Part shown: positions 37,639 through 48,300 of the stretch, piece by piece
Layout of the letters: every line of letters starts with the position of its first letter
Position numbering within the stretch: position 1 is the first letter of the stretch
NCBI GenBank assembly: GCA_017450705.1
Contig: JAFSTC010000092.1
Location: forward strand, 1,676-65,675
From: Lentisphaeria bacterium
GTDB lineage: Bacteria > Verrucomicrobiota > Lentisphaeria > Victivallales > Victivallaceae
Direction of reading: 5' to 3'
DNA length: 64,000 bases
Program-made: the position numbers and the translations under genes
The notes under the pieces: generated by a model
Told to the model about the DNA's origin: nothing
Database searches by the model: none
Seen by the model: only the letters and a program-made list of their open reading frames with translations

Positions 37639-37668
37639 CCGGAACCAATTTCCGACACGGAGGAAATC

Positions 37669-38790
37669 ATGCGGACACGCCTCAAGGATATCGCCCGGCA
37701 GCTGGACTGCTCGCTGCAGACCGTCTCCCTTGTCATGAACGGCAAGTACCACGGCCGCGTGACCGAGGCCCGCGCCCGGGAAGTCCGCGAAACGGCCGAA
37801 AAAATGGGCTACGTCGTCAACTTCTCCGCCGGATGCCTCCGGGGCAAACGCTCCCACGCCGTGGGCGTCATCCAGCCCGCCGTCTCCCCGGGAGGCTTCC
37901 CCGATCTGGCCGCCACCGTGGCCCGCCACCTCCAGAAAAGCGGCTATCAGGTCTACTTTTATATCCAGGACGCCGACGGCACCAACCGCGAGGCCATCAC
38001 CTCCCTCGTCAGCCGCGGCGTGGAAGGCGTGATCCTCCTCGACTGCTACAACATCGTCCCCCACCGCGACGAACTCTGCCCCGTCCTCGCCGTCGGCTCC
38101 ATGGCCAACAGCGAGATCTCCGTGGACAAACGCAGCGGCGTCCGCAACGCCGCCGCCCACCTGATCCGCTGCCACGGTCACCGCAAAATAGGCTTCGTCA
38201 CCAACGGCTCCCGCTTCTCCCTCAGCAGCGCCGAAAAACTCGACGGCGTCCGCCTGGGCCTCGCCGATGCAGATCTGGAGTTCGCCCCCGAGTTCTGCGT
38301 CGACGTCTCCCGCGTCGCCGACTGCGAAGCCCGCCTCAGAAAACTGGTGGTCGAGTCCGGCGTCACCGCCTTCTGCTGCGCCAACGATTATGTCGCCGGC
38401 AGGCTGATCTCCTACTTGACCCGCCGCGGCGTCCGCGTCCCCGAAGACGTGGCCGTGGTCGGCTTCGACGGCCTCAACTTCGGCGAATTCTCCCAGGTCC
38501 CCCTGGCCACCGTCGTCCAGCCCTTCGAACTCCTCGGACGCCGCACCGTCGAGATCATGCTCGACCGCATCTCCGGCATCGCTCCCTCCGGCCGGACCGA
38601 ACTCCTCGCCCCCGCCTTCCGCCCCGGCCCCAGCTGCGGATGTCCCCTCCCGCACGAACCCGTCCTCCCCATGGTCGAGTGGCTCGGCCTCTCCTACGAC
38701 CAGAGCGACCCCGTCTACGCCGGCGAACTCGCCGGTTTCGTCTCCCCCAACCAGCACCCTCTTTACTTCTTTTCCCGCGAAAAGAAGTAA
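37669..38790 (+). CDS. LacI family transcriptional regulator
   Basis: N-terminal HTH MRTRLKDIARQLDCSLQTVSLVMNGK followed by a periplasmic-binding-protein-like fold. RBS is GGAGGAAATC. The last ~9 codons (…LYFFSREKK*) are encoded by the direct repeat at 38762. Confidence 0.9.
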   Translation: MRTRLKDIARQLDCSLQTVSLVMNGKYHGRVTEARAREVRETAEKMGYVVNFSAGCLRGKRSHAVGVIQPAVSPGGFPDLAATVARHLQKSGYQVYFYIQDADGTNREAITSLVSRGVEGVILLDCYNIVPHRDELCPVLAVGSMANSEISVDKRSGVRNAAAHLIRCHGHRKIGFVTNGSRFSLSSAEKLDGVRLGLADADLEFAPEFCVDVSRVADCEARLRKLVVESGVTAFCCANDYVAGRLISYLTRRGVRVPEDVAVVGFDGLNFGEFSQVPLATVVQPFELLGRRTVEIMLDRISGIAPSGRTELLAPAFRPGPSCGCPLPHEPVLPMVEWLGLSYDQSDPVYAGELAGFVSPNQHPLYFFSREKK

Positions 38791-38878
38791 GTCAATACAG
38801 CCGTGTAGCGGCGGCCTGCCCTTCCGCCTTTGCCGGGGCTGCGGCGGGACAAGTCGGGTGGCCGCCGGATTTTGTTGC
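38762..38878 (+). repeat. Direct repeat copy 1 (hairpin TTACTTCTTTTC..GAAAAGAAGTAA + GTCAATAC + CGGCGGCC...GGCCGCCG-T-tract), overlapping the lacI-family 3' end
   Basis: TTTACTTCTTTTCCCGCGAAAAGAAGTAAGTCAATACAGCCGTGTAGCGGCGGCCTGCCCTTC... aligns with 41959-42046. The CGGCGGCC (38809) / GGCCGCCG (38860) arms are followed by GATTTTGTTG and may terminate lacI transcription. Confidence 0.8.
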
Positions 38879-38972
38879 CGGATGTCCGTCCCTGCGGACA
38901 TGTTTCGGCCCCTTTCCGGCGCTCTTCGCGGGCGGTTCCCGGGCGTTTTTGTTTTTTTTATGTAAAAAAAGG

Positions 38973-38990
38973 GCTTTTTTCGCAAAAAGC
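38973..38990. promoter_or_regulatory. Candidate LacI-family operator: 18-bp imperfect palindrome centred on CG
   Basis: GCTTTTTTCGCAAAAAGC (16 of 18 positions symmetric) lies just upstream of the -35 position of the 39012 promoter. Confidence 0.3.
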
Positions 38991-39011
38991 AATGGAAAAA
39001 ATCTCTTCAGG

Positions 39012-39020
39012 TGGTATAAT
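39012..39020 (+). promoter_or_regulatory. Extended -10 promoter element (TGgTATAAT) for the NagB-like operon
   Basis: gTGgTATAATa is a perfect TGnTATAAT, about 65 nt upstream of the ATG at 39085, inside an AT-rich gap. Confidence 0.5.
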
Positions 39021-39084
39021 ATGCAGAGACACTTGATTTTCTCAAGCGGAAAAAGTCAATTGAAACAAACGGAGGAAACACAAA

Positions 39085-40011
39085 ATGCGCGCATTGTCCA
39101 AAGTCGCTCCCGAGTGGTGGGATTACACGACCCTTGACCGGTCCATCCTCGACGCCGCGGCCAAGATCACCATCAACGACCTCAAGAAACTCGAGCGTCC
39201 CGGCTTCAAGATCAACATCTTCGAGACCCTGCAGGAGTTCTACGCCGCCGAGGCTCTGGAATACGTCAAGTGCTGGCAGCAGGCCACCGCTTCCCGTCCC
39301 GCCGGCATCTGCGGACCCATCGGTCCCACCGAGCAGCTGCCCATCGTCGCCCAGATCGTCAACGACCTCAACATCAACCTCAAAAACTGCCACTTCTGGG
39401 GCATGGACGAATGGCTGGTCGACGGCAAGGCCGCCGATATCAACTTCCCCCTGGGCTTCGCCAAGGCCGACATGGATCTCTGCTTCAACCGCATCCGCCC
39501 CGAACTGCGCATGCCCAAGGAGAATCTCCACTTCCCCACCGAGAACCCCGAAGAGTACACCAAGAGCTACGATCTGGCCCGCTGCATCATCATGCAGGGC
39601 GGTCAGGGCGAGACCAAGCACTGGGCCTTCAACGATCCCGTGCACCGCGAAGGCGCCTACAAGGACAATCCGCCCACGCCTGAAGAGTACCGCAAAAAGT
39701 CCACCCGCATCGTGGATCTGCATCCCATCACCCTGATCCAGAACGCCCGCACCTCCGGCGGCGGCACCGTCCAGAACGTGCCCAACGGCGCCATCACCGT
39801 CGGCCCCGTCGAGACCTGGAAGGCCGAGAACGTCTCCATCTGGCATCCCGGCCACCACGACAACCCCTTCGGCCAGCGGCTCACCGCCTACATGATCTCC
39901 AACAAGATCGCCGACAGTACCGTGCCCATGTCCCTGCTCTCCGATCACCCCAGCGTGATCTTCAACTACTACCGCCACGGTTTCGGCGTGTGTGACGTGG
40001 AGATGCATTGA
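39085..40011 (+). CDS. Glucosamine-6-phosphate deaminase/isomerase (NagB/6-phosphogluconolactonase superfamily)-like protein
   Basis: [12 protein letters not shown]...HFWGMDEW...[18 protein letters not shown]. At 308 aa it is longer than a typical NagB. Confidence 0.8.
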
Positions 40012-40013
40012 TC

Positions 40014-40820
40014 ATGGCCAAACGCGCATTCGCCATCGCCTGCCATCCCGACGACATCGAGTTCGGGATGGCGGGAACGCTCATCAAGCTCAAGAAGGCC
40101 GGGTACGAGATCCATTACATGAATATCGCCAACGGCAGTCTCGGCACCAATCAGTACGACTACAAGACCATCGTCGCCATGCGGCGTGAAGAGGCCATGA
40201 ACGCCGCCAAGCTCATCGGGGCGCACTACCACGAGAGCATCTGCGACGACGTCGAGGTCTTCTACTCCAAGGAGCTCTACGCCCAGATCGTGCCCGAGAT
40301 CCGCGAGGTCGATCCCGAGATCATCCTCACCCACGGGCCCTACGATTACATGGAGGACCACGTCAACGCCGGACGTCTTGCCGTCAGCTCCGCGTTCTTC
40401 CGCGGCATGACCAACTGCAAGTGCTCCCGGCCCGCGGCCCCGGTCAACACCGAAGTGGCGATCTACCACTCCGCGCCCCACAGCCTGACCGACCAGCTCC
40501 GCCGCCCCGTGATCCCCGGCATGTTCGTGGACATCAAGGACGAACTCCAGACCAAGAAGGACATGCTCTGCTGCCACCGCTCCCAGAAGGACTGGCTGGA
40601 CATCAGCCAGGGCAACGACGCCTATCTGGACGACATGGAGTCCCGCGCCCGCTACTTCGGACGCATCTCCGGCAGATACACCTTCGCCGAAGGCTGGATC
40701 CGTCACAACCATCTGGGCTTCTGCGGTCCGGACTTCAACCCCATGCTCGAGGCGCTGAAAGACGACTGCTTCGTCAATCAGAAGTTCGAAGACGCCCTCA
40801 AGCTCGAAAACTATCTCTGA
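40014..40820 (+). CDS. PIG-L/LmbE family N-acetylglucosaminyl deacetylase
   Basis: AIACHPDDIEFGMAG matches the AHPDDxE signature, followed by EDHVNAG. The ATG lies 3 nt after the upstream stop; the track start at 40008 is TTG. Confidence 0.88.
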   Translation: MAKRAFAIACHPDDIEFGMAGTLIKLKKAGYEIHYMNIANGSLGTNQYDYKTIVAMRREEAMNAAKLIGAHYHESICDDVEVFYSKELYAQIVPEIREVDPEIILTHGPYDYMEDHVNAGRLAVSSAFFRGMTNCKCSRPAAPVNTEVAIYHSAPHSLTDQLRRPVIPGMFVDIKDELQTKKDMLCCHRSQKDWLDISQGNDAYLDDMESRARYFGRISGRYTFAEGWIRHNHLGFCGPDFNPMLEALKDDCFVNQKFEDALKLENYL

Positions 40821-40833
40821 GGAGTTTCTGCAC

Positions 40834-41958
40834 GTGAGTACATTCGTCGGAATCGGTCTCGGCCCCATCCAGACCGGGATCTTCCTCGCCGGAGCCGCCA
40901 AAGGCGGCTTCGACCGCATCGTCATCGCGGAGGTCAACGACAAGCTCAGGGCCGCCGTCAACGCCGCGGGGAGCGTCACCGTCAACATCGCGGCGAAAGA
41001 CCGGGTGTACGCCGAGACTTACAAAAACGTCGAAGTCTACAACCCCAACGATCCCGAAGAGGTGAAAAAACTGATCCAGGCCGCGGCGGAAGCCTCGGAG
41101 CTGGCCACGGCTCTGCCCAGCGTCAAGTTCTACGCCTACTGCGCCCCCTGGCTCCGCGAGGGCTTTGCCCTCCAGCCGGAGCGCACCCGCTTCTTCTACA
41201 CGGCCGAAAACAACAATCACGCCGCCGAAGAGCTGGAAAAGGCCATGGGGACGAAATTCCCCAACACCTTCTACCTCAACACCGTCATCGGCAAGATGAG
41301 CGGCATCGTCCCGGCCTCCGCCGAGCGTCCGGGCCTGGCCCCCGCCGCCGAGAACGGTCACCTGGTGGAGGAGTTCTGCACCATCTACATCTCCAAGTGC
41401 CCCGGCATCGGGAACAGGAAAGTGCAGTCCCTCTTCGTCAAGGACGACCTCTTCCCCTTCGAGGACGCCAAACTTTACGGTCACAACGCGACGCATTTCC
41501 TCCTCGCCACCCTGGGCAAGGCCAAGGGCTGCACCACCATGGACGAAGTGCGCGCCTTCCCGGAACTCGTCGAGATCGCCCGTCAGGCCTTCACGAACGA
41601 GTCCGGCGCGGCCCTGATCAAAAAGTACGGGCACCTCAACGACGAGCTTTTCACCGAGGCCGGATTCAAGGCCTACGTGGATAATCTCCTCGTGCGCATG
41701 ACCAATCCCTTCCTCAAGGACGCCATCGACCGCATCACCCGCGATCCCGAGCGCAAATTGAGCTGGGACGACCGCGTCATCGGCACCATGCGTCTGGCCC
41801 TGAGCCAGGGCATCGAGCCCGTGAACTTCGCCGCCGGCGCCAAACTCGCCGCCGCCGAATGGGCCGCCGGAGAAGACGTCCGCACCAAACTCGCCGCCCT
41901 GTGGCCCCAGCCCTGGGGCCCCGAGCACGAAAAACTCGCCTCCCTCATGGAGATCTGA
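40834..41958 (+). CDS. Hypothetical protein, possible Rossmann-type sugar(-phosphate) dehydrogenase (mannitol-dehydrogenase-like); function uncertain
   Basis: Gly-rich N-terminus FVGIGLGPIQTGIFLAGAA resembles the GxGxIGRG opening of mannitol/polyol dehydrogenases. GTG start follows GAGGAG. Weak, eye-only similarity. Confidence 0.55.
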   Translation: MSTFVGIGLGPIQTGIFLAGAAKGGFDRIVIAEVNDKLRAAVNAAGSVTVNIAAKDRVYAETYKNVEVYNPNDPEEVKKLIQAAAEASELATALPSVKFYAYCAPWLREGFALQPERTRFFYTAENNNHAAEELEKAMGTKFPNTFYLNTVIGKMSGIVPASAERPGLAPAAENGHLVEEFCTIYISKCPGIGNRKVQSLFVKDDLFPFEDAKLYGHNATHFLLATLGKAKGCTTMDEVRAFPELVEIARQAFTNESGAALIKKYGHLNDELFTEAGFKAYVDNLLVRMTNPFLKDAIDRITRDPERKLSWDDRVIGTMRLALSQGIEPVNFAAGAKLAAAEWAAGEDVRTKLAALWPQPWGPEHEKLASLMEI

Positions 41959-42046
41959 TTTACTTCTTTTCCCCGTGAAAAGAAGTAAGTCAATACTGCC
42001 GGATAACGGCGGCCTTGCCCTTCGGGGAGGCCGCCGATTTTTTGTC
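41959..42046 (+). repeat. Direct repeat copy 2, directly after the cassette's last stop codon
   Basis: TTTACTTCTTTTCCCCGTGAAAAGAAGTAAGTCAATACTGCCGGATAACGGCGGCCTTGCCCTTCGGGGAGGCCGCCGATTTTTTG. Confidence 0.8.
42007..42043 (+). terminator. Rho-independent terminator of the NagB-like operon
   Basis: CGGCGGCC / ttgcccttcgggga / GGCCGCCG followed by ATTTTTT. Confidence 0.7.
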
Positions 42047-42112
42047 CCGTTCCCCGCCCCGGCCCGCGTCACCGCGGCGGCTTCCGGACTTAACCGTACC
42101 TCTCCGTACCGG

Positions 42113-42970
42113 TCAGTACCGCGGGATGTGAGACCACGATTCGGTGCGGTACTGTCCGGGGGAAAGCCCCTCTTTCTGCCGGAAGACCCGGCAGAAGTAA
42201 CTGCCGGACTTGAATCCGGTCCGCTCCGCGATCTGATCCAGCAGCAGGTCCGAGGTAAGAAGAAGTCTCTTGGCCCTCTGTATGCGTTCCCTGTTGACCA
42301 GGACCTGAAAGTTCTCTCCGCATTCCTCTCTGACCATGTGTCCGCTGCGGGAAACGGAGAGACACAGTTCCTTCGCCAGCTCTTTCAGCGTGCAGTTCGA
42401 ACGGTGGGCGTTGCGGCGTATGAAGTATTCTATGCGGCGGCGTCTCGCGCTCAGACGGGCCGGAACTTCCGCCTCGAGTTCCCGTTCCAGCAGCGCAAGA
42501 AGGGAGACGCCCAGCGCGTACAGGACCCTCGACAGTTCTTCCTCTTTTTCGGCGGTCAGAACGGGCAATGCCCCGTAGAGCTCCCGGGCCTTTTCCGCGG
42601 GCAGCGGACAACGCGCCCCCGCTTCCCTGAAGGCTCCGGCAAACAGCGTCAGCATCCGGACGCCGTCCATGCGGATCGTCACCGCGATCTCGCAGATACC
42701 CTTCCAGCAGCATAGCCGGCACTCGGATCTCTCCGGATCGGAATCGAAGATCTGATTGATCCTGCCCACGCAGTTCTGCGTACAGAGAAGTTCCCCCTCC
42801 CGGCCGTTCCGCAGATAGCGGCAGTAGGGATGCATGTGCAGATGCCTTCCCGGCAGGGGATTGCGGTCGTTCCGCCCCCGCAGCTGCCCCAGTTCGTCGT
42901 GGACGGTTATGCGGATCCCGAAGGCTTTTTCGTGATCCCGCAGCAGTTTTTCGCAGTCGAAGGTTTTCAT
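42113..42970 (-). CDS. AraC family transcriptional regulator with Cys/His-rich (PocR-like) N-terminal sensor
   Basis: N-terminus ITVHDELG...HLHMHPYCRYLR...LLCTQNCVGR...ECRLCCWKGICEIA. C-terminal HTH LKELAKELCLSVSRSGHMVREECGENFQVLVNRERIQRAKRLL...IAERTGFKSGSYFCRVFRQKEGLSPGQYR. Confidence 0.85.
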   Translation of the reverse strand: MKTFDCEKLLRDHEKAFGIRITVHDELGQLRGRNDRNPLPGRHLHMHPYCRYLRNGREGELLCTQNCVGRINQIFDSDPERSECRLCCWKGICEIAVTIRMDGVRMLTLFAGAFREAGARCPLPAEKARELYGALPVLTAEKEEELSRVLYALGVSLLALLERELEAEVPARLSARRRRIEYFIRRNAHRSNCTLKELAKELCLSVSRSGHMVREECGENFQVLVNRERIQRAKRLLLTSDLLLDQIAERTGFKSGSYFCRVFRQKEGLSPGQYRTESWSHIPRY

Positions 42971-44549: not shown

Positions 44550-44612
44550 CGTGCGGGAACATCATTGCATATCAACGGAAATCAAAACAACCGAGAGAAA
44601 AGGGGGTAAGGA

Positions 44613-45287
44613 ATGAAAGAAAACAAGAAGCTGTCCGGCGGACGTTTCGGGAAACGCATCCATCAAAAGTTCACCCTGATAGAACTTTTGGTCGTCATTG
44701 CGATCATCGCCATTCTTGCGGCAATGCTGATGCCCGCGCTGCAGCAGGCCCGGGAGAGCGCGCGGACGAGCAGTTGTCTCAACAATCTCGGGCAGCTGGG
44801 CAAGGCCACCCGTTTTTACGCCGACGACAACAACGGCTACATCCCCATTTATCAGCCGATGACGACGCGCTACTACTGGCATCTGGCACTGGTCGAGGGA
44901 AAATACACGCCGATGCCGCGTGAAAAGTTTCTGGCCACCGACAATGCACAGGGCCTCTTTGCCTGTCCGACGGAATCCCGGGAAAAATCTTATACCGACA
45001 AAAGCTGGGGGCGGACCCATTACGGGCAGGACCGCAGCATGGACGCCGTTATGCTCGCCGCAAGCGGGTATTCCAAAAATGCCTTGCGCATCGACAGTTA
45101 CAAAAATTCGTCGAGGAAGGTGTGGCTGGGGGACTCTTCGGTCGGACTGGTCATCCGCAACTACGTCGATTACTTTCCCGCTCTCCGGCACAACGGCGGA
45201 TGGTGCGTCAATTATCTGGACGGCCACGTCGGATCCCTCAAGGAGGTCCCGCCTTCCAGCGATGTCTTCTGGGATGTCAACATTTAG
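44613..45287 (+). CDS. Prepilin-type N-terminal domain / H-X9-DG protein (paralogue 4)
   Basis: [35 protein letters not shown] near the N-terminus. The C-terminus [13 protein letters not shown] fits H-X9-DG. Confidence 0.88.
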
Positions 45288-45302
45288 GAAGGAGAAGACG
45301 CC

Positions 45303-48300
45303 GTGAATCGCCGTTTTTTGCCCGCGGGGATGCTTCTTCTCTTCTCCGGTTTGCTCGTTCCGGTCTGTACCGGAGAGGACAAACTGGTTTTTTCCTGCGA
45401 TTTTTCCGACAAATTCCGTCCGCAGACCTGTGTCCAGCCCTGCGACATCTTTCCGAAAGACGCGAAGATCGTGGACGTTCCCGGCGGGAAGGCTCTGCGG
45501 GTCGGCAAGGACAAGGACGGCCGTCTTTCGAGGGTGACCTGGCAGATCAAGAAAACGGTCCCGACGGCAACGCTGCCCGATCCCGAGCGGCCGTTCCCCA
45601 TGCGTTTCGGCCGTCTCGAGTTTCAGTTCCGCCCCGTTGACTGGCGTCTCGGAGATCCCCCGTTCAACATGATGCTGATCATGCGGGGACCGCGGCAGAC
45701 CCGTCTCCACATCACCTACACCCGGCCCGGGGGAACGGGGCTCCCCTCGATACAGGCTTCCTACGGGCAGAACGGGAACCGGAAGATCGGCAAAGGGCAG
45801 CTGCCCTCCCTTTTCCCCTACATCGATCTGGACGGCGCGCGGGAGTGGCACGACGTGCGCTTCGAATGGACTCCGGCCATGCTCAAGCTGACCGTCGATG
45901 GACATGAGAAGATCCTGTCCGCCAGAGACCTGGCCGCGCCGGAGGGCGATTTCTACGCGACGGGCCTGATCCTCGGCGGGGAAACGGCGAAGGAGCTCCG
46001 CGGTCTCACCGATATCAGAAACGTGAAGATCTTCTCGACCCGGCCGAAGGCGGAAAAAGCCGGCAGGACCCATTTCCCCGAGGTCTCCGTCCCTCCCGTG
46101 AAGGCTCCCGTGATCGACGGGGCCGTGTCGCGGGAAGAGTGGTCCTCAGCCGCCGCGGTCAGCGGTTTCAAATCCCTGCCCCGGGGGATCTTTGCCGGGC
46201 ATCAGCCGGTCGTCCACATCGGATACGATGAAAAAAACCTCTACTTCGCCGTGGTCAGCTCCGGTCATGACGCCCCACCGCGCGCGCGGCACACTTCTCA
46301 CGACGCCAACATCTGGGAGGACGACAATTTCGAGCTGCACATCGACCCCGCGCCGGAAACGCCGGATCATTTTCAACTGACCGTCAACAGCGCGGGGATC
46401 GTCTTCGACCAGCACATCCGGCCCGGCCGCGGGTTCGACGAGTGCCGCCGGTGGGACTGCCGGGACCTGGAGACGGCGAGCCGCTTCGACGGCGGCACCT
46501 GGACTTTCGAGGCCAGGATCCCCTTTTCCGCGCTGGGCGCCGCCGCGCCGCGCCCCGGCGACAGATGGCTCTTCAACGTCTGCCAGACCCTTCCCGGATC
46601 GGGCCTCTACAGCCTGGCCGCGGTCCAGAACAACTACAGGGAGCATGACAGGCTCGGCATTTTGACGTTCCGCTCCGCCGACGCTCCCCGGGTCAAACTG
46701 GCCGGTTTCGGAGACCTGACCCGCGGGAACGCGGATCTTTCTTTCGGCGCCCCCGGCGTCAGGAACGGCAAAACCGAGGTCACCGCCATGCGGTTCGACG
46801 AGACGGCCGGCGTGGAATTCCCCCTGTTCAGCGAGACGGGCCCCCTGCGTCCCGGCGTGAGCCGGGTCTTTTCCGCGGACAGCGGCAAACTCGGCAAGAC
46901 CGGGACGCTGTACGTGAATCTCTTCGAAGGGCGGGACCGGATCTACGCCGGGCGTTTCCGCTACGAGATCAGCGACGAAGCGGAGATCGAGTTCCTGCGC
47001 AGGATCGTCAGGGACGGGAAAAATTTTCTGCTGGTCCAAAGCGTCCAGGCCGTCCCTCCCGGGGGCTCCCTGCTTTTCGAGATAACGGACAAGGCAAAAA
47101 AAATCGTCTTCCGTCACAAGGTCCCCGCGGCGAAGGACCGCTGCGAGACGCTGATCCCGCTTTCGGATCTTGCCGAAGGCGACTACATGATCGGTCTGCA
47201 TCTGCTGGACCGGCAGGGGGCGACGCTCAAGACGGCCGCGGCCCGTCCCTTCACCGTGTTCGGACCAAAGCTTCCGTGGACGGGGTGCCGGCTGGGCATC
47301 ACCGACGGCGTTCCCGCGCCGTGGGTCCCGCTGCAGGCGTCGGAGGAGAAGGGGACCGTCACCGTCAGGTGCTGGAACCGCACGTATACCTTCGGAAGCC
47401 GGTCGCTTTTCGCCGAAGGGATCCGGTCGGGCGGCACGGAGTATCTGACTGAGCCCGTCCGTCTGCTCGTTTCGGCCGGGAAGCCCCTGTCCGTTTCCGG
47501 GATTTCCGCGAAGCTGATCTCGGCGGACAAAAGGACCGCCGTCGTCGAAATGACGGGCGAGATCCCCGGCCTGGGCGCCGTCAGAACGACGGCTTCCGTG
47601 GAATACGACGGCTTCATCTGGTACGACTTGGAGCTCCGGGCCGGCACCCCGGGGAAGCTTCATATGCTTGCCGTCGAACTGAAGATGCCCGGCAGCGCCT
47701 CCACGCTGCTCAACTCGGGCTACCGCACGCTGGTCAACACCGGGAAAACGCCGAAAAGCTGGAGCAAAAAACTGGACGACACCTTCGGCCCCTTCTGGAT
47801 CGGGAACGAGACGGGCGGGTTGAGTTTCGGGATCGAATCCGCGGAAAACTGGTGCAACAGGGACCCCGGCCGTCAGGCCGTCGTCACCCGGGACGGAGAG
47901 GGTGCCCGGGTCGTCCTCTCCCCGGTCGACGCCGGCATTGCGATAAAGGACCGTCTGACCTGGGGTTTTTACATCCACCCGACCCCCGTGCGGCCCCGGC
48001 CCGCCGTATTCCACACCATGCGCTGTCAGGACTGGTTCGGCCACAACCGGGAGCTTCTCGGGAAGAAGAGCTATCCCCCCAATCTCTCCTACTGGATGAC
48101 GGGATATCACTATCAGGGCACCCCGGCCTGGGAAACCGACAGGAAACGGCTCGAGAAGAACAGAAAGGAGCGTATGCTCCACTGGCGGCCCTACTTCCAT
48201 TACGACAACCTGACGAAGGAAAAGTGCCGTTCGGCCTGGTACGCCGACTATTCGAGCATCGGACGCAATTCCCCCGAGACGATCTGGTGCGGGGAGTCCT

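Follow-up and report, generated by a model that had tools for sequence, protein, structure and literature searches.

MITE-like elements (so called after the miniature inverted-repeat transposable elements), such as the Correia elements of Neisseria, can carry terminators or alter gene ends. Here we describe a locus of a rumen Victivallales bacterium at which a three-gene operon with the predicted look of an amino-sugar pathway, preceded by a gene for a LacI-family regulator, is flanked by two direct copies of a palindromic repeat. The repetitive extragenic palindromes (REP) and related BIME-type repeats of proteobacteria, to which this repeat invites comparison, have been reviewed (PMC3733652, PMC3184786), and the fused NagB-PIG-L architecture, which resembles the first two genes of the operon, is on record as nagB-PIGL (PMC13198582). 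We found no description in the literature of this repeat family or of a split NagB-like/PIG-L gene pair.

The DNA analyzed is a stretch of 64,000 nucleotides, called the window below, on a 95-kb contig (C62) of a 3.97-Mb genome that is 97% complete (G000). C-numbers denote other contigs of this genome, and G001, G004, G008, G010, G012, G017, G045 and G055 are congeners. The preliminary description of the window had taken the repeats as the boundaries of a cassette, duplicated when it was inserted or relocated next to the LacI gene, or else as a mobile terminator module. Our results argue against boundaries: the repeats belong to a family of some 100-125 copies that sits at the 3′ ends of genes, and the same operon occurs in G008, G045 and G055 without the pair.

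A palindrome family at gene 3′ ends

The direct repeat pair around the operon was readily recovered, with copy 1 at 38762-38878 and copy 2 at 41959-42046, both on the plus strand. The copies lie 3.2 kb apart in direct orientation and share one order of parts, namely an AT-rich hairpin, the linker TCAATAC, a GC-rich hairpin and a T-run. In copy 1 the arms of the AT-rich hairpin occupy 38762-38774 and 38779-38791 (13 bp, loop CCGC) and are followed by the linker at 38792-38798, a long-loop GC hairpin at about 38809-38868 and a T-run at 38870-38877; in copy 2 the corresponding positions are 41959-41971 and 41977-41989 for the arms, 41990-41996 for the linker, about 42005-42036 for the GC hairpin and 42038-42043 for the T-run. 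The internal hairpin had been described with 12-bp arms; the hairpin is there, with arms of 13 bp in copy 1 and of 16 bp in copy 2, where the TGA stop codon of the third gene pairs with the start of the linker and so extends the stem. The two copies are 89% identical over their first 57 nt, and the GC hairpin is about 27-30 nt longer in copy 1, in line with the insertion of roughly 30 nt noted earlier in its terminator loop. Folding predictions gave -56.9 kcal/mol (z -2.45) for copy 1 and -50.7 kcal/mol (z -7.9) for copy 2, and 0 occurrences of the repeat 37-mer were expected from shuffled sequence. Copy 2 has the sequence of an intrinsic terminator, with a GC stem, a TTCG loop and then T6, and is likely to be the terminator of the operon in a convergent gap; copy 1 has its longer GC hairpin followed by a weaker T-run, TTTTGTTG. 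An Rfam search of the whole window at gathering thresholds returned 0 matches.

The AT-rich hairpin core recurs throughout the genome, with about 125 matches to a loose pattern and 21 exact matches, whereas a control whose arms were reversed gave 0. Most cores form the tip of a longer element. In the consensus of 68 oriented copies, this element is built of a perfect palindrome (about 56 nt, its outer arms GC-rich) followed by some 38 nt of conserved tail. The full element measures about 95-110 nt, with the tail ending in GTATTTTGAGG, and about 70 full copies begin almost directly after stop codons (for example at about 14592 of the window, which is C62:16267, and at C11:50521, C74:119509 and C17:69251). 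Cores with two flanking genes lie in 30 convergent, 29 tandem and 2 divergent gaps, compared with 258, 777 and 304 such gaps genome-wide; the nearest gene 3′ end is at a median distance of 37 nt from a core, and 18% of cores fall within a crude coding mask that covers 78% of the genome. Since 30% of cores lie at most 300 nt from a contig end, the family evidently breaks the assembly of this genome. We counted 24 pairs of neighboring cores no more than 5 kb apart, where about 18 would be expected under uniform placement; bracketing of genes by members of the family is therefore common. The exact core is present in 23 of the 52 genomes of the genus, at 0-122 copies per genome (controls, 0-1), and a single exact match was found across 56 genomes of other genera in the order. 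The hairpin family is a high-copy, extragenic, imperfect palindrome, as REP elements are.

The family is also modular. Its ends read TTAC...GTAA(G), with CTAC...GTAG in one copy only, on C11, and two-part copies in which a TTAC...GTAA-type hairpin is joined to a second hairpin occur on C16, C46, C11, C78 and C117. The GC hairpin of copy 2 resembles one of the ends of a second small element, which is found within the 3′ arm of hairpins of the family at about 10 sites (among them C17:67739-67860, C2:11002, C7:29017, C49:7334 and C62:72795), and the long-loop GC module of copy 1 recurs on C36, C87, C11 and C90. The second element has inverted ends of the GGTATAACTGCGGC and GCGCCGTTATCC type and is repeatedly located at one point of the 3′ arm, after GAAAAG, as if targeting the hairpin. 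At C46:3500-3575, the TTAC...GTAA-type hairpin begins directly 3′ of a tRNA gene, recognizable by its T-arm and acceptor end.

The joined form with the linker sets the two copies apart from the rest of the family. A 20-mer across the arm and linker has exactly two sites in the 3.97-Mb genome, namely copies 1 and 2, and in the 51 other genomes of the genus it has only two matches, each with 2 mismatches (in G004 and G001). The match in G004, near the locus of the first two operon genes, falls inside a pyruvate phosphate dikinase gene and was put down to chance. When flanks were compared, each copy ranked among the best matches of the other, with only 1 of 94 other cores outscoring copy 2 as the partner of copy 1; neighboring cores in general were no more alike than distant ones. 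The preliminary description had named a high-copy, genome-wide terminator with no tie to cassette boundaries as something that would speak against it, and a family standing at gene 3′ ends throughout the genome answers to this in part. Because the linker is shared by these two sites alone, we infer that both copies descend from one composite element. A derivation of the linker from an old LacI flank, suggested by the closeness of the native 3′ flank in G055 (AAGTAATCAATAGCGG) to the repeat (AAGTAAGTCAATAC), was set aside since AAGTAAG is a feature of the family and only about 6 nt are specific.

The LacI gene end, the cassette in relatives and transcription

The LacI-family gene (37669-38790, plus strand, 373 aa) matches the Pfam models LacI, Peripla_BP_3 and Peripla_BP_1, and its scores against PF00356 (30 bits; cut-off 27) and PF13377 (81 bits) identify both a LacI helix-turn-helix and a sensor domain. 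Its product ends in NQHPLYFFSREKK (HPLYFFSREKK), and the stop codon at 38788-38790 lies inside the hairpin of copy 1. The repeat was earlier thought to supply about nine codons and the stop; it does supply this C-terminus, as the last 8 codons plus the stop. Orthologues were found in only 5 of the 52 genomes of the genus. A comparison of their C-termini, which the preliminary description had proposed, showed that they end differently, in TPLPWK, TPDLWK or DPEKWTIG after a conserved GFV(S/P)PNQ tail motif, so the end seen in G000 is not the common one. These native ends indicate that the repeat replaced the last 3-4 native codons of LacI. All five orthologues also have in common an unusual C-terminal tail of about 45-50 aa past the sensor domain (38640-38760, residues about 324-365; PSCGCPLPHEPVLPMVEWLGL.YDQSDPVYAGELAGFV), for which no Pfam match was obtained.

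The surroundings of the LacI gene vary from genome to genome. In G010, the contig that carries LacI ends at the exact nucleotide where the repeat begins in G000. In G045, a family palindrome stands 2 nt after the LacI stop, and the gene is unlinked to the cassette and divergent from Rnf genes. In G008 it is likewise unlinked, following hydrogenase-like genes and converging on a Na+/H+ exchanger whose orthologue lies 7.5 kb upstream in G000. In G055 LacI adjoins the cassette, divergently and at a distance of 287 nt. This pattern fits a clade-specific regulator with a rearranged neighborhood, since linkage of LacI to the operon is seen in two of the four genomes in which it could be resolved, and in differing orientations, the tandem arrangement being seen in the G000 species only. 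No operator common to the LacI and operon promoters was found. The dyad at 38973-38990 was rejected as a LacI operator: it is imperfect (7-nt arms, 4-nt spacer) and lies inside an AT-rich block that is kept in G008, G045 and G012, where LacI is unlinked or was not found. Another dyad, at 39031-39045 just downstream of the -10 element, reads CTTGAnnnnnTCAAG in G000 and G010 and is TCTCTTnnAAGAGA-like in G055, G045 and G012; its position is kept, as that of an operator would be.

The conserved cassette extends over about 38956-41958. It comprises a promoter and leader (38956-39084) and three plus-strand genes, which we call g1 (39085-40011, 308 aa), g2 (40014-40820, 268 aa) and g3 (40834-41958, 374 aa). 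A spacer of 77 nt (38879-38955) separates copy 1 from its left edge; this spacer, with small GC hairpins and a T-run, had no match in the relatives searched. DNA similarity to G010, G012, G045 and G055 begins at about 38956-38966. A promoter scan of the block recognized AT-rich dyads, a -35 element TGGAAA (38993-38998), an extended -10 element TGgTATAAT (39012-39020), the dyad at 39031-39045 and a ribosome-binding site, and the block recurs in G008, G010, G012, G045 and G055. The three-gene unit with the same promoter block is present in G000, G008, G045 and G055, and G000 alone of the four has this repeat pair. g1 and g2 occur together in 24 of the 24 genus genomes first searched by DNA and in other families of the order; outside the fused unit they adjoin housekeeping genes (TilS, IspD, FtsA), and g3 stands elsewhere, after Der and a PHP-domain gene.

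Different modules occupy the site after g3 in G000, G045 and G055. In G008 no family element follows the g3 stop; in G045 two tandem family modules of another type begin at 3 nt, and in G055 an ordinary terminator is followed by a full family palindrome at 110 nt. Tandem family copies stand 3′ of g3 in G017 as well, and in G010 a family tail lies directly upstream of the promoter block. The cassette of G000 is 94% identical to that of G010 over 38962-40067, and the g1 proteins are 99.7% identical; the two repeat copies diverge from each other by 11%, compared with 6% between the cassette and its closest relative over the same 38962-40067. Synteny with relatives breaks at both flanks of the cassette. 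An empty site was also sought in G000 where relatives have g1-g2 (TilS/IspD) or g3 (Der/PHP) and at the places of the G008 neighbors, and synteny was too scrambled for these to be of use.

The layout of the locus is not an assembly artefact, as an independent bovine-gut study provides a contig of 2002 nt that extends over 37649-39133 and has 6 mismatches there, and a second contig runs through copy 2 into the AraC-family gene beyond it. A contig of run X5 that skips 38153-41831 was disregarded, one of its sides being only 22 nt long and in GC-rich sequence.

In assembled rumen metatranscriptome contigs, depth was high over 39237-41908 and near zero over LacI and past 41909, with the onset in the 39070-39236 bin. 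Across copy 2 (41909-42075), RNA word depth fell from about 255 to 0, as measured on assembled contigs and not on mapped 3′ ends. The intergenic gaps are short, 2 nt between g1 (stop at 40011) and g2 (ATG at 40014) and 13 nt between g2 (stop at 40820) and g3 (GTG at 40834), and RNA contigs with about 98% identity bridge both the g1/g2 (39832-40054) and the g2/g3 (40488-40907) junctions, which fits the operon proposed earlier. The data fit a single well-expressed operon that runs from the conserved promoter to copy 2.

Origin of the bracketed arrangement

We consider it probable that each of the two copies marks a transcript end and that they were homogenized or copied locally when a rearrangement brought LacI into tandem with the operon. 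The flanking repeats would be members of a genus-restricted, modular, REP/MITE-like palindrome family at gene 3′ ends, and each would mark where a transcription unit ends, LacI in the case of copy 1 and g1-g2-g3 in that of copy 2. Having come from one composite element, as their shared TCAATAC linker suggests, they would have arisen by local copying, or by gene conversion and homogenization, during a rearrangement in the G000 lineage that set LacI in tandem upstream of the operon and removed 3-4 native codons from the end of the LacI gene. The cassette itself would not have been delivered by the repeats. That the repeats are not the borders of a mobile cassette is argued by the roughly 100 copies of the family at gene ends across the genome and by the cassettes of relatives, which lack the pair. 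The alternative of the preliminary description, a mobile terminator module, comes close to the truth.

Several points weigh against this account. A simple consensus terminator scan flagged neither copy. The composite, in which the TCAATAC linker joins the parts, is private to the two sites and lies there in direct orientation 3.2 kb apart, which is also what an insertion mediated by recombination would leave. Comparisons with congeners yielded neither target-site duplications nor a clean empty/filled site pair, so that neither the mobility of the module nor the direction of copying is demonstrated. The relatives are fragmented metagenome-assembled genomes. Some of the metatranscriptome contigs may stem from close relatives, and contigs from an assembly do not suffice to prove that there is one transcript or where exactly its 3′ end lies. 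The substrates assigned to the operon below are entirely inferred.

An insertion of the Campbell type, in which a circular or linear segment made of promoter, g1-g2-g3 and repeat underwent recombination with an identical copy standing at the LacI 3′ end and so left a copy on either side, in keeping with the preliminary description, appears unlikely to us. It would account for a composite found at these two sites only and in direct orientation, for a tandem LacI-operon adjacency confined to this species and for the loss of synteny at both flanks. Yet the two copies are 11% apart over 57 nt and have unlike variants of the GC hairpin, whereas the cassette is 94% identical to that of G010 over 38962-40067; moreover, 77 nt unmatched in relatives separate copy 1 from the conserved promoter, in G055 LacI is already next to the cassette but oriented the other way, and neither a contig joining copy 1 to copy 2 nor a recombinase nearby was detected. 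Alternatively, two members of a small, recently active, non-autonomous MITE-like sub-family that targets gene 3′ ends may have inserted independently, the bracketing then being coincidental. We rate this as quite improbable: a sub-family with two members in 4 Mb, both of them within 3.2 kb, is not what random insertion would be expected to produce, and target-site duplications and a transposase were not identified, even though the family has a patchy and expansive distribution among congeners (0-122 copies), prefers 3′ ends, includes related two-part copies on C16, C46, C11, C78 and C117 and stands in tandem after g3 in G045 and G017.

The preliminary description had reported no integrase or transposase. 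The Y1/RAYT transposase model PF01797 had no match in G000, and of six tyrosine recombinases (PF00589) in the genome none lies on the 95-kb contig C62. The latter result bears on a very remote reading, in which the hairpin is the recombination site of an unidentified cassette-shuffling system, like the attC sites of integrons that fold as single strands, and the operon a true mobile cassette. Conservation of the hairpin sequence over about 100 sites and the heavily rearranged gene order around LacI and the cassette among congeners are compatible with it, but the cassette carries its own conserved promoter, contig C62 has no integrase, no attC-like R/L core is present and the elements stand at the ends of ordinary genes genome-wide. 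Hardly more credible is the broader proposal that some recombination or processing system of the genus recognizes the hairpin and moves or inverts operon-sized segments, the operon being one such hairpin-bounded cassette; if true, it could explain the inverted LacI in G000 versus G055 and the scrambled neighborhoods.

The operon's enzymes and comparison with known systems

The placement of g1 in the glucosamine-6-phosphate deaminase (NagB) superfamily, made in the preliminary description, agrees with its predicted fold. g1 had no Pfam match, including to Glucosamine_iso (PF01182), and scored far under the cut-off of TIGR00502 (E 1e-4, 21.7 bits; cut-off 236.9). Its AlphaFold2 model (pLDDT 78, pTM 0.81) matched glucosamine-6-phosphate deaminases in Foldseek (E 6e-16, TM 0.63-0.81), which ranked above 6-phosphogluconolactonases. 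In a weak alignment to Escherichia coli NagB, the motifs MDEW and KHWAFNDP of g1 provide equivalents of Asp72 and His143, with Asp in place of Glu148 and Thr in place of Asp141. The link to NagB rests on the fold and on single-sequence matches, since a profile of the g1 family found no match among PDB sequences. We therefore describe g1 as a divergent protein of the NagB superfamily by fold and a putative amino-sugar(-phosphate) deaminase/isomerase. It is one of a large and highly conserved family of 308-aa proteins that is represented in Victivallales, Planctomycetota and other phyla. Across the genus, amino acid identity is 76-87% for g1, compared with 59-65% for g2, 40% for TilS, 41% for IspD and 54% for Der, which suggests that g1 is under very strong constraint.

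The other two genes are more readily classified. g2 is a zinc deacetylase of the PIG-L/LmbE family, as proposed (81.8 bits against Pfam PIG-L; cut-off 28.2), with CHPDDIE at residues 10-16 providing the HPDD metal motif; its nearest solved relatives in PDB are diacetylchitobiose deacetylases and BshB, and it scored 110 bits against the BshB1 model, under the cut-off of 182.5. g3 had been left unassigned and instead falls in the long-chain mannitol-dehydrogenase family, with 58.9 bits against Pfam Mannitol_dh_C, E 1.5e-28 against the NCBIfam models of mannitol-1-phosphate 5-dehydrogenase (best score 100 bits; equivalog cut-off 356) and E 4.9e-16 against PDB 3h2z. Within this family it is closest by sequence to mannitol-1-phosphate 5-dehydrogenase. 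In the resulting scheme, g2 would remove the acetyl group from an N-acetyl amino sugar, free or phosphorylated, g1 would deaminate and isomerize the product to a keto-sugar phosphate and g3 would interconvert this with a polyol phosphate, using NAD(H). A NagA-type gene is absent from the operon, as was noted earlier, and the genome does have canonical NagA (two proteins above the cut-off) and three Glucosamine_iso genes elsewhere; the g1-g2 pair is therefore not the sole route for N-acetylglucosamine 6-phosphate (GlcNAc-6-P). The pair probably acts on a substrate other than GlcNAc-6-P. At C99:50065-52941, a canonical nagB-like gene adjoins a nagA-like frame with one in-frame TGA.

To the right of the cassette, and outside it, a convergent AraC-family regulator is encoded on the minus strand at 42113-42970 (Pfam HTH_18 and HTH_AraC, with a weak PocR match). 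Further along, a segment of about 100 nt at 44670-44786 of the window is 75-88% identical to 20-44 or more sites in each of five congeners. It corresponds to the N-terminal prepilin-type methylation region of a plus-strand open reading frame (44613-45287); a long minus-strand frame that overlaps it (44562-46073) may be spurious.

Our analysis shows how a dense repeat family at gene 3′ ends can give rise to an apparent cassette bracketed by direct repeats, which guards against over-calling mobile cassettes in metagenome-assembled genomes. The family itself, apparently undescribed in the literature we found, is restricted to one genus, is modular, varies from 0 to 122 copies without RAYT, breaks assemblies and can rewrite the C-terminus of a gene. 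The NagB-like/PIG-L pair, present in 24 of 24 genus genomes, more conserved in g1 than housekeeping genes are and abundant among rumen metatranscriptome contigs, makes a sensible candidate in the search for a new amino-sugar activity.

Like REP and BIME repeats, the palindromes described here are short, high-copy and extragenic, stand at gene 3′ ends and in convergent gaps, are sometimes tandem and form terminator-like or mRNA-end structures. Unlike them, they have an AT-rich rather than GC-rich hairpin tip and a much longer element (a palindrome of about 56 nt plus the tail), show no consistent GTAG or CGTC tag, have no RAYT/Y1 transposase in G000 and are confined to one Victivallales genus at 0-122 copies. 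With MITEs they share the general features of being small, non-coding, dispersed, variable in copy number among close relatives, nestable and able to replace last codons, whereas we identified no target-site duplications, no terminal inverted repeats that match a known transposase and no autonomous partner. Integron cassettes differ in that this operon has its own conserved promoter and its contig has no PF00589 match.

As for the enzymes, the fused NagB-PIG-L proteins have the same two domains in the same order, which here are two genes with a 2-nt gap; unlike the fusion, g1 has no Pfam Glucosamine_iso match and sits in its separate 308-aa family. Against the NCBIfam fusion model NF002557 ('glucosamine-6-phosphate deaminase-like protein'), g1 (E 0.006) and g2 (E 0.0007) each matched the corresponding half, very weakly. 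g3 resembles MtlD (PDB 3h2z), to which it aligns over nearly its full length and with which it shares Mannitol_dh_C, and differs in falling far under every equivalog cut-off (100 versus 356 or more bits). In kind, then, the find is an ordinary one: a new repeat family of a known type, beside an uncharacterized sugar operon of conventional appearance.

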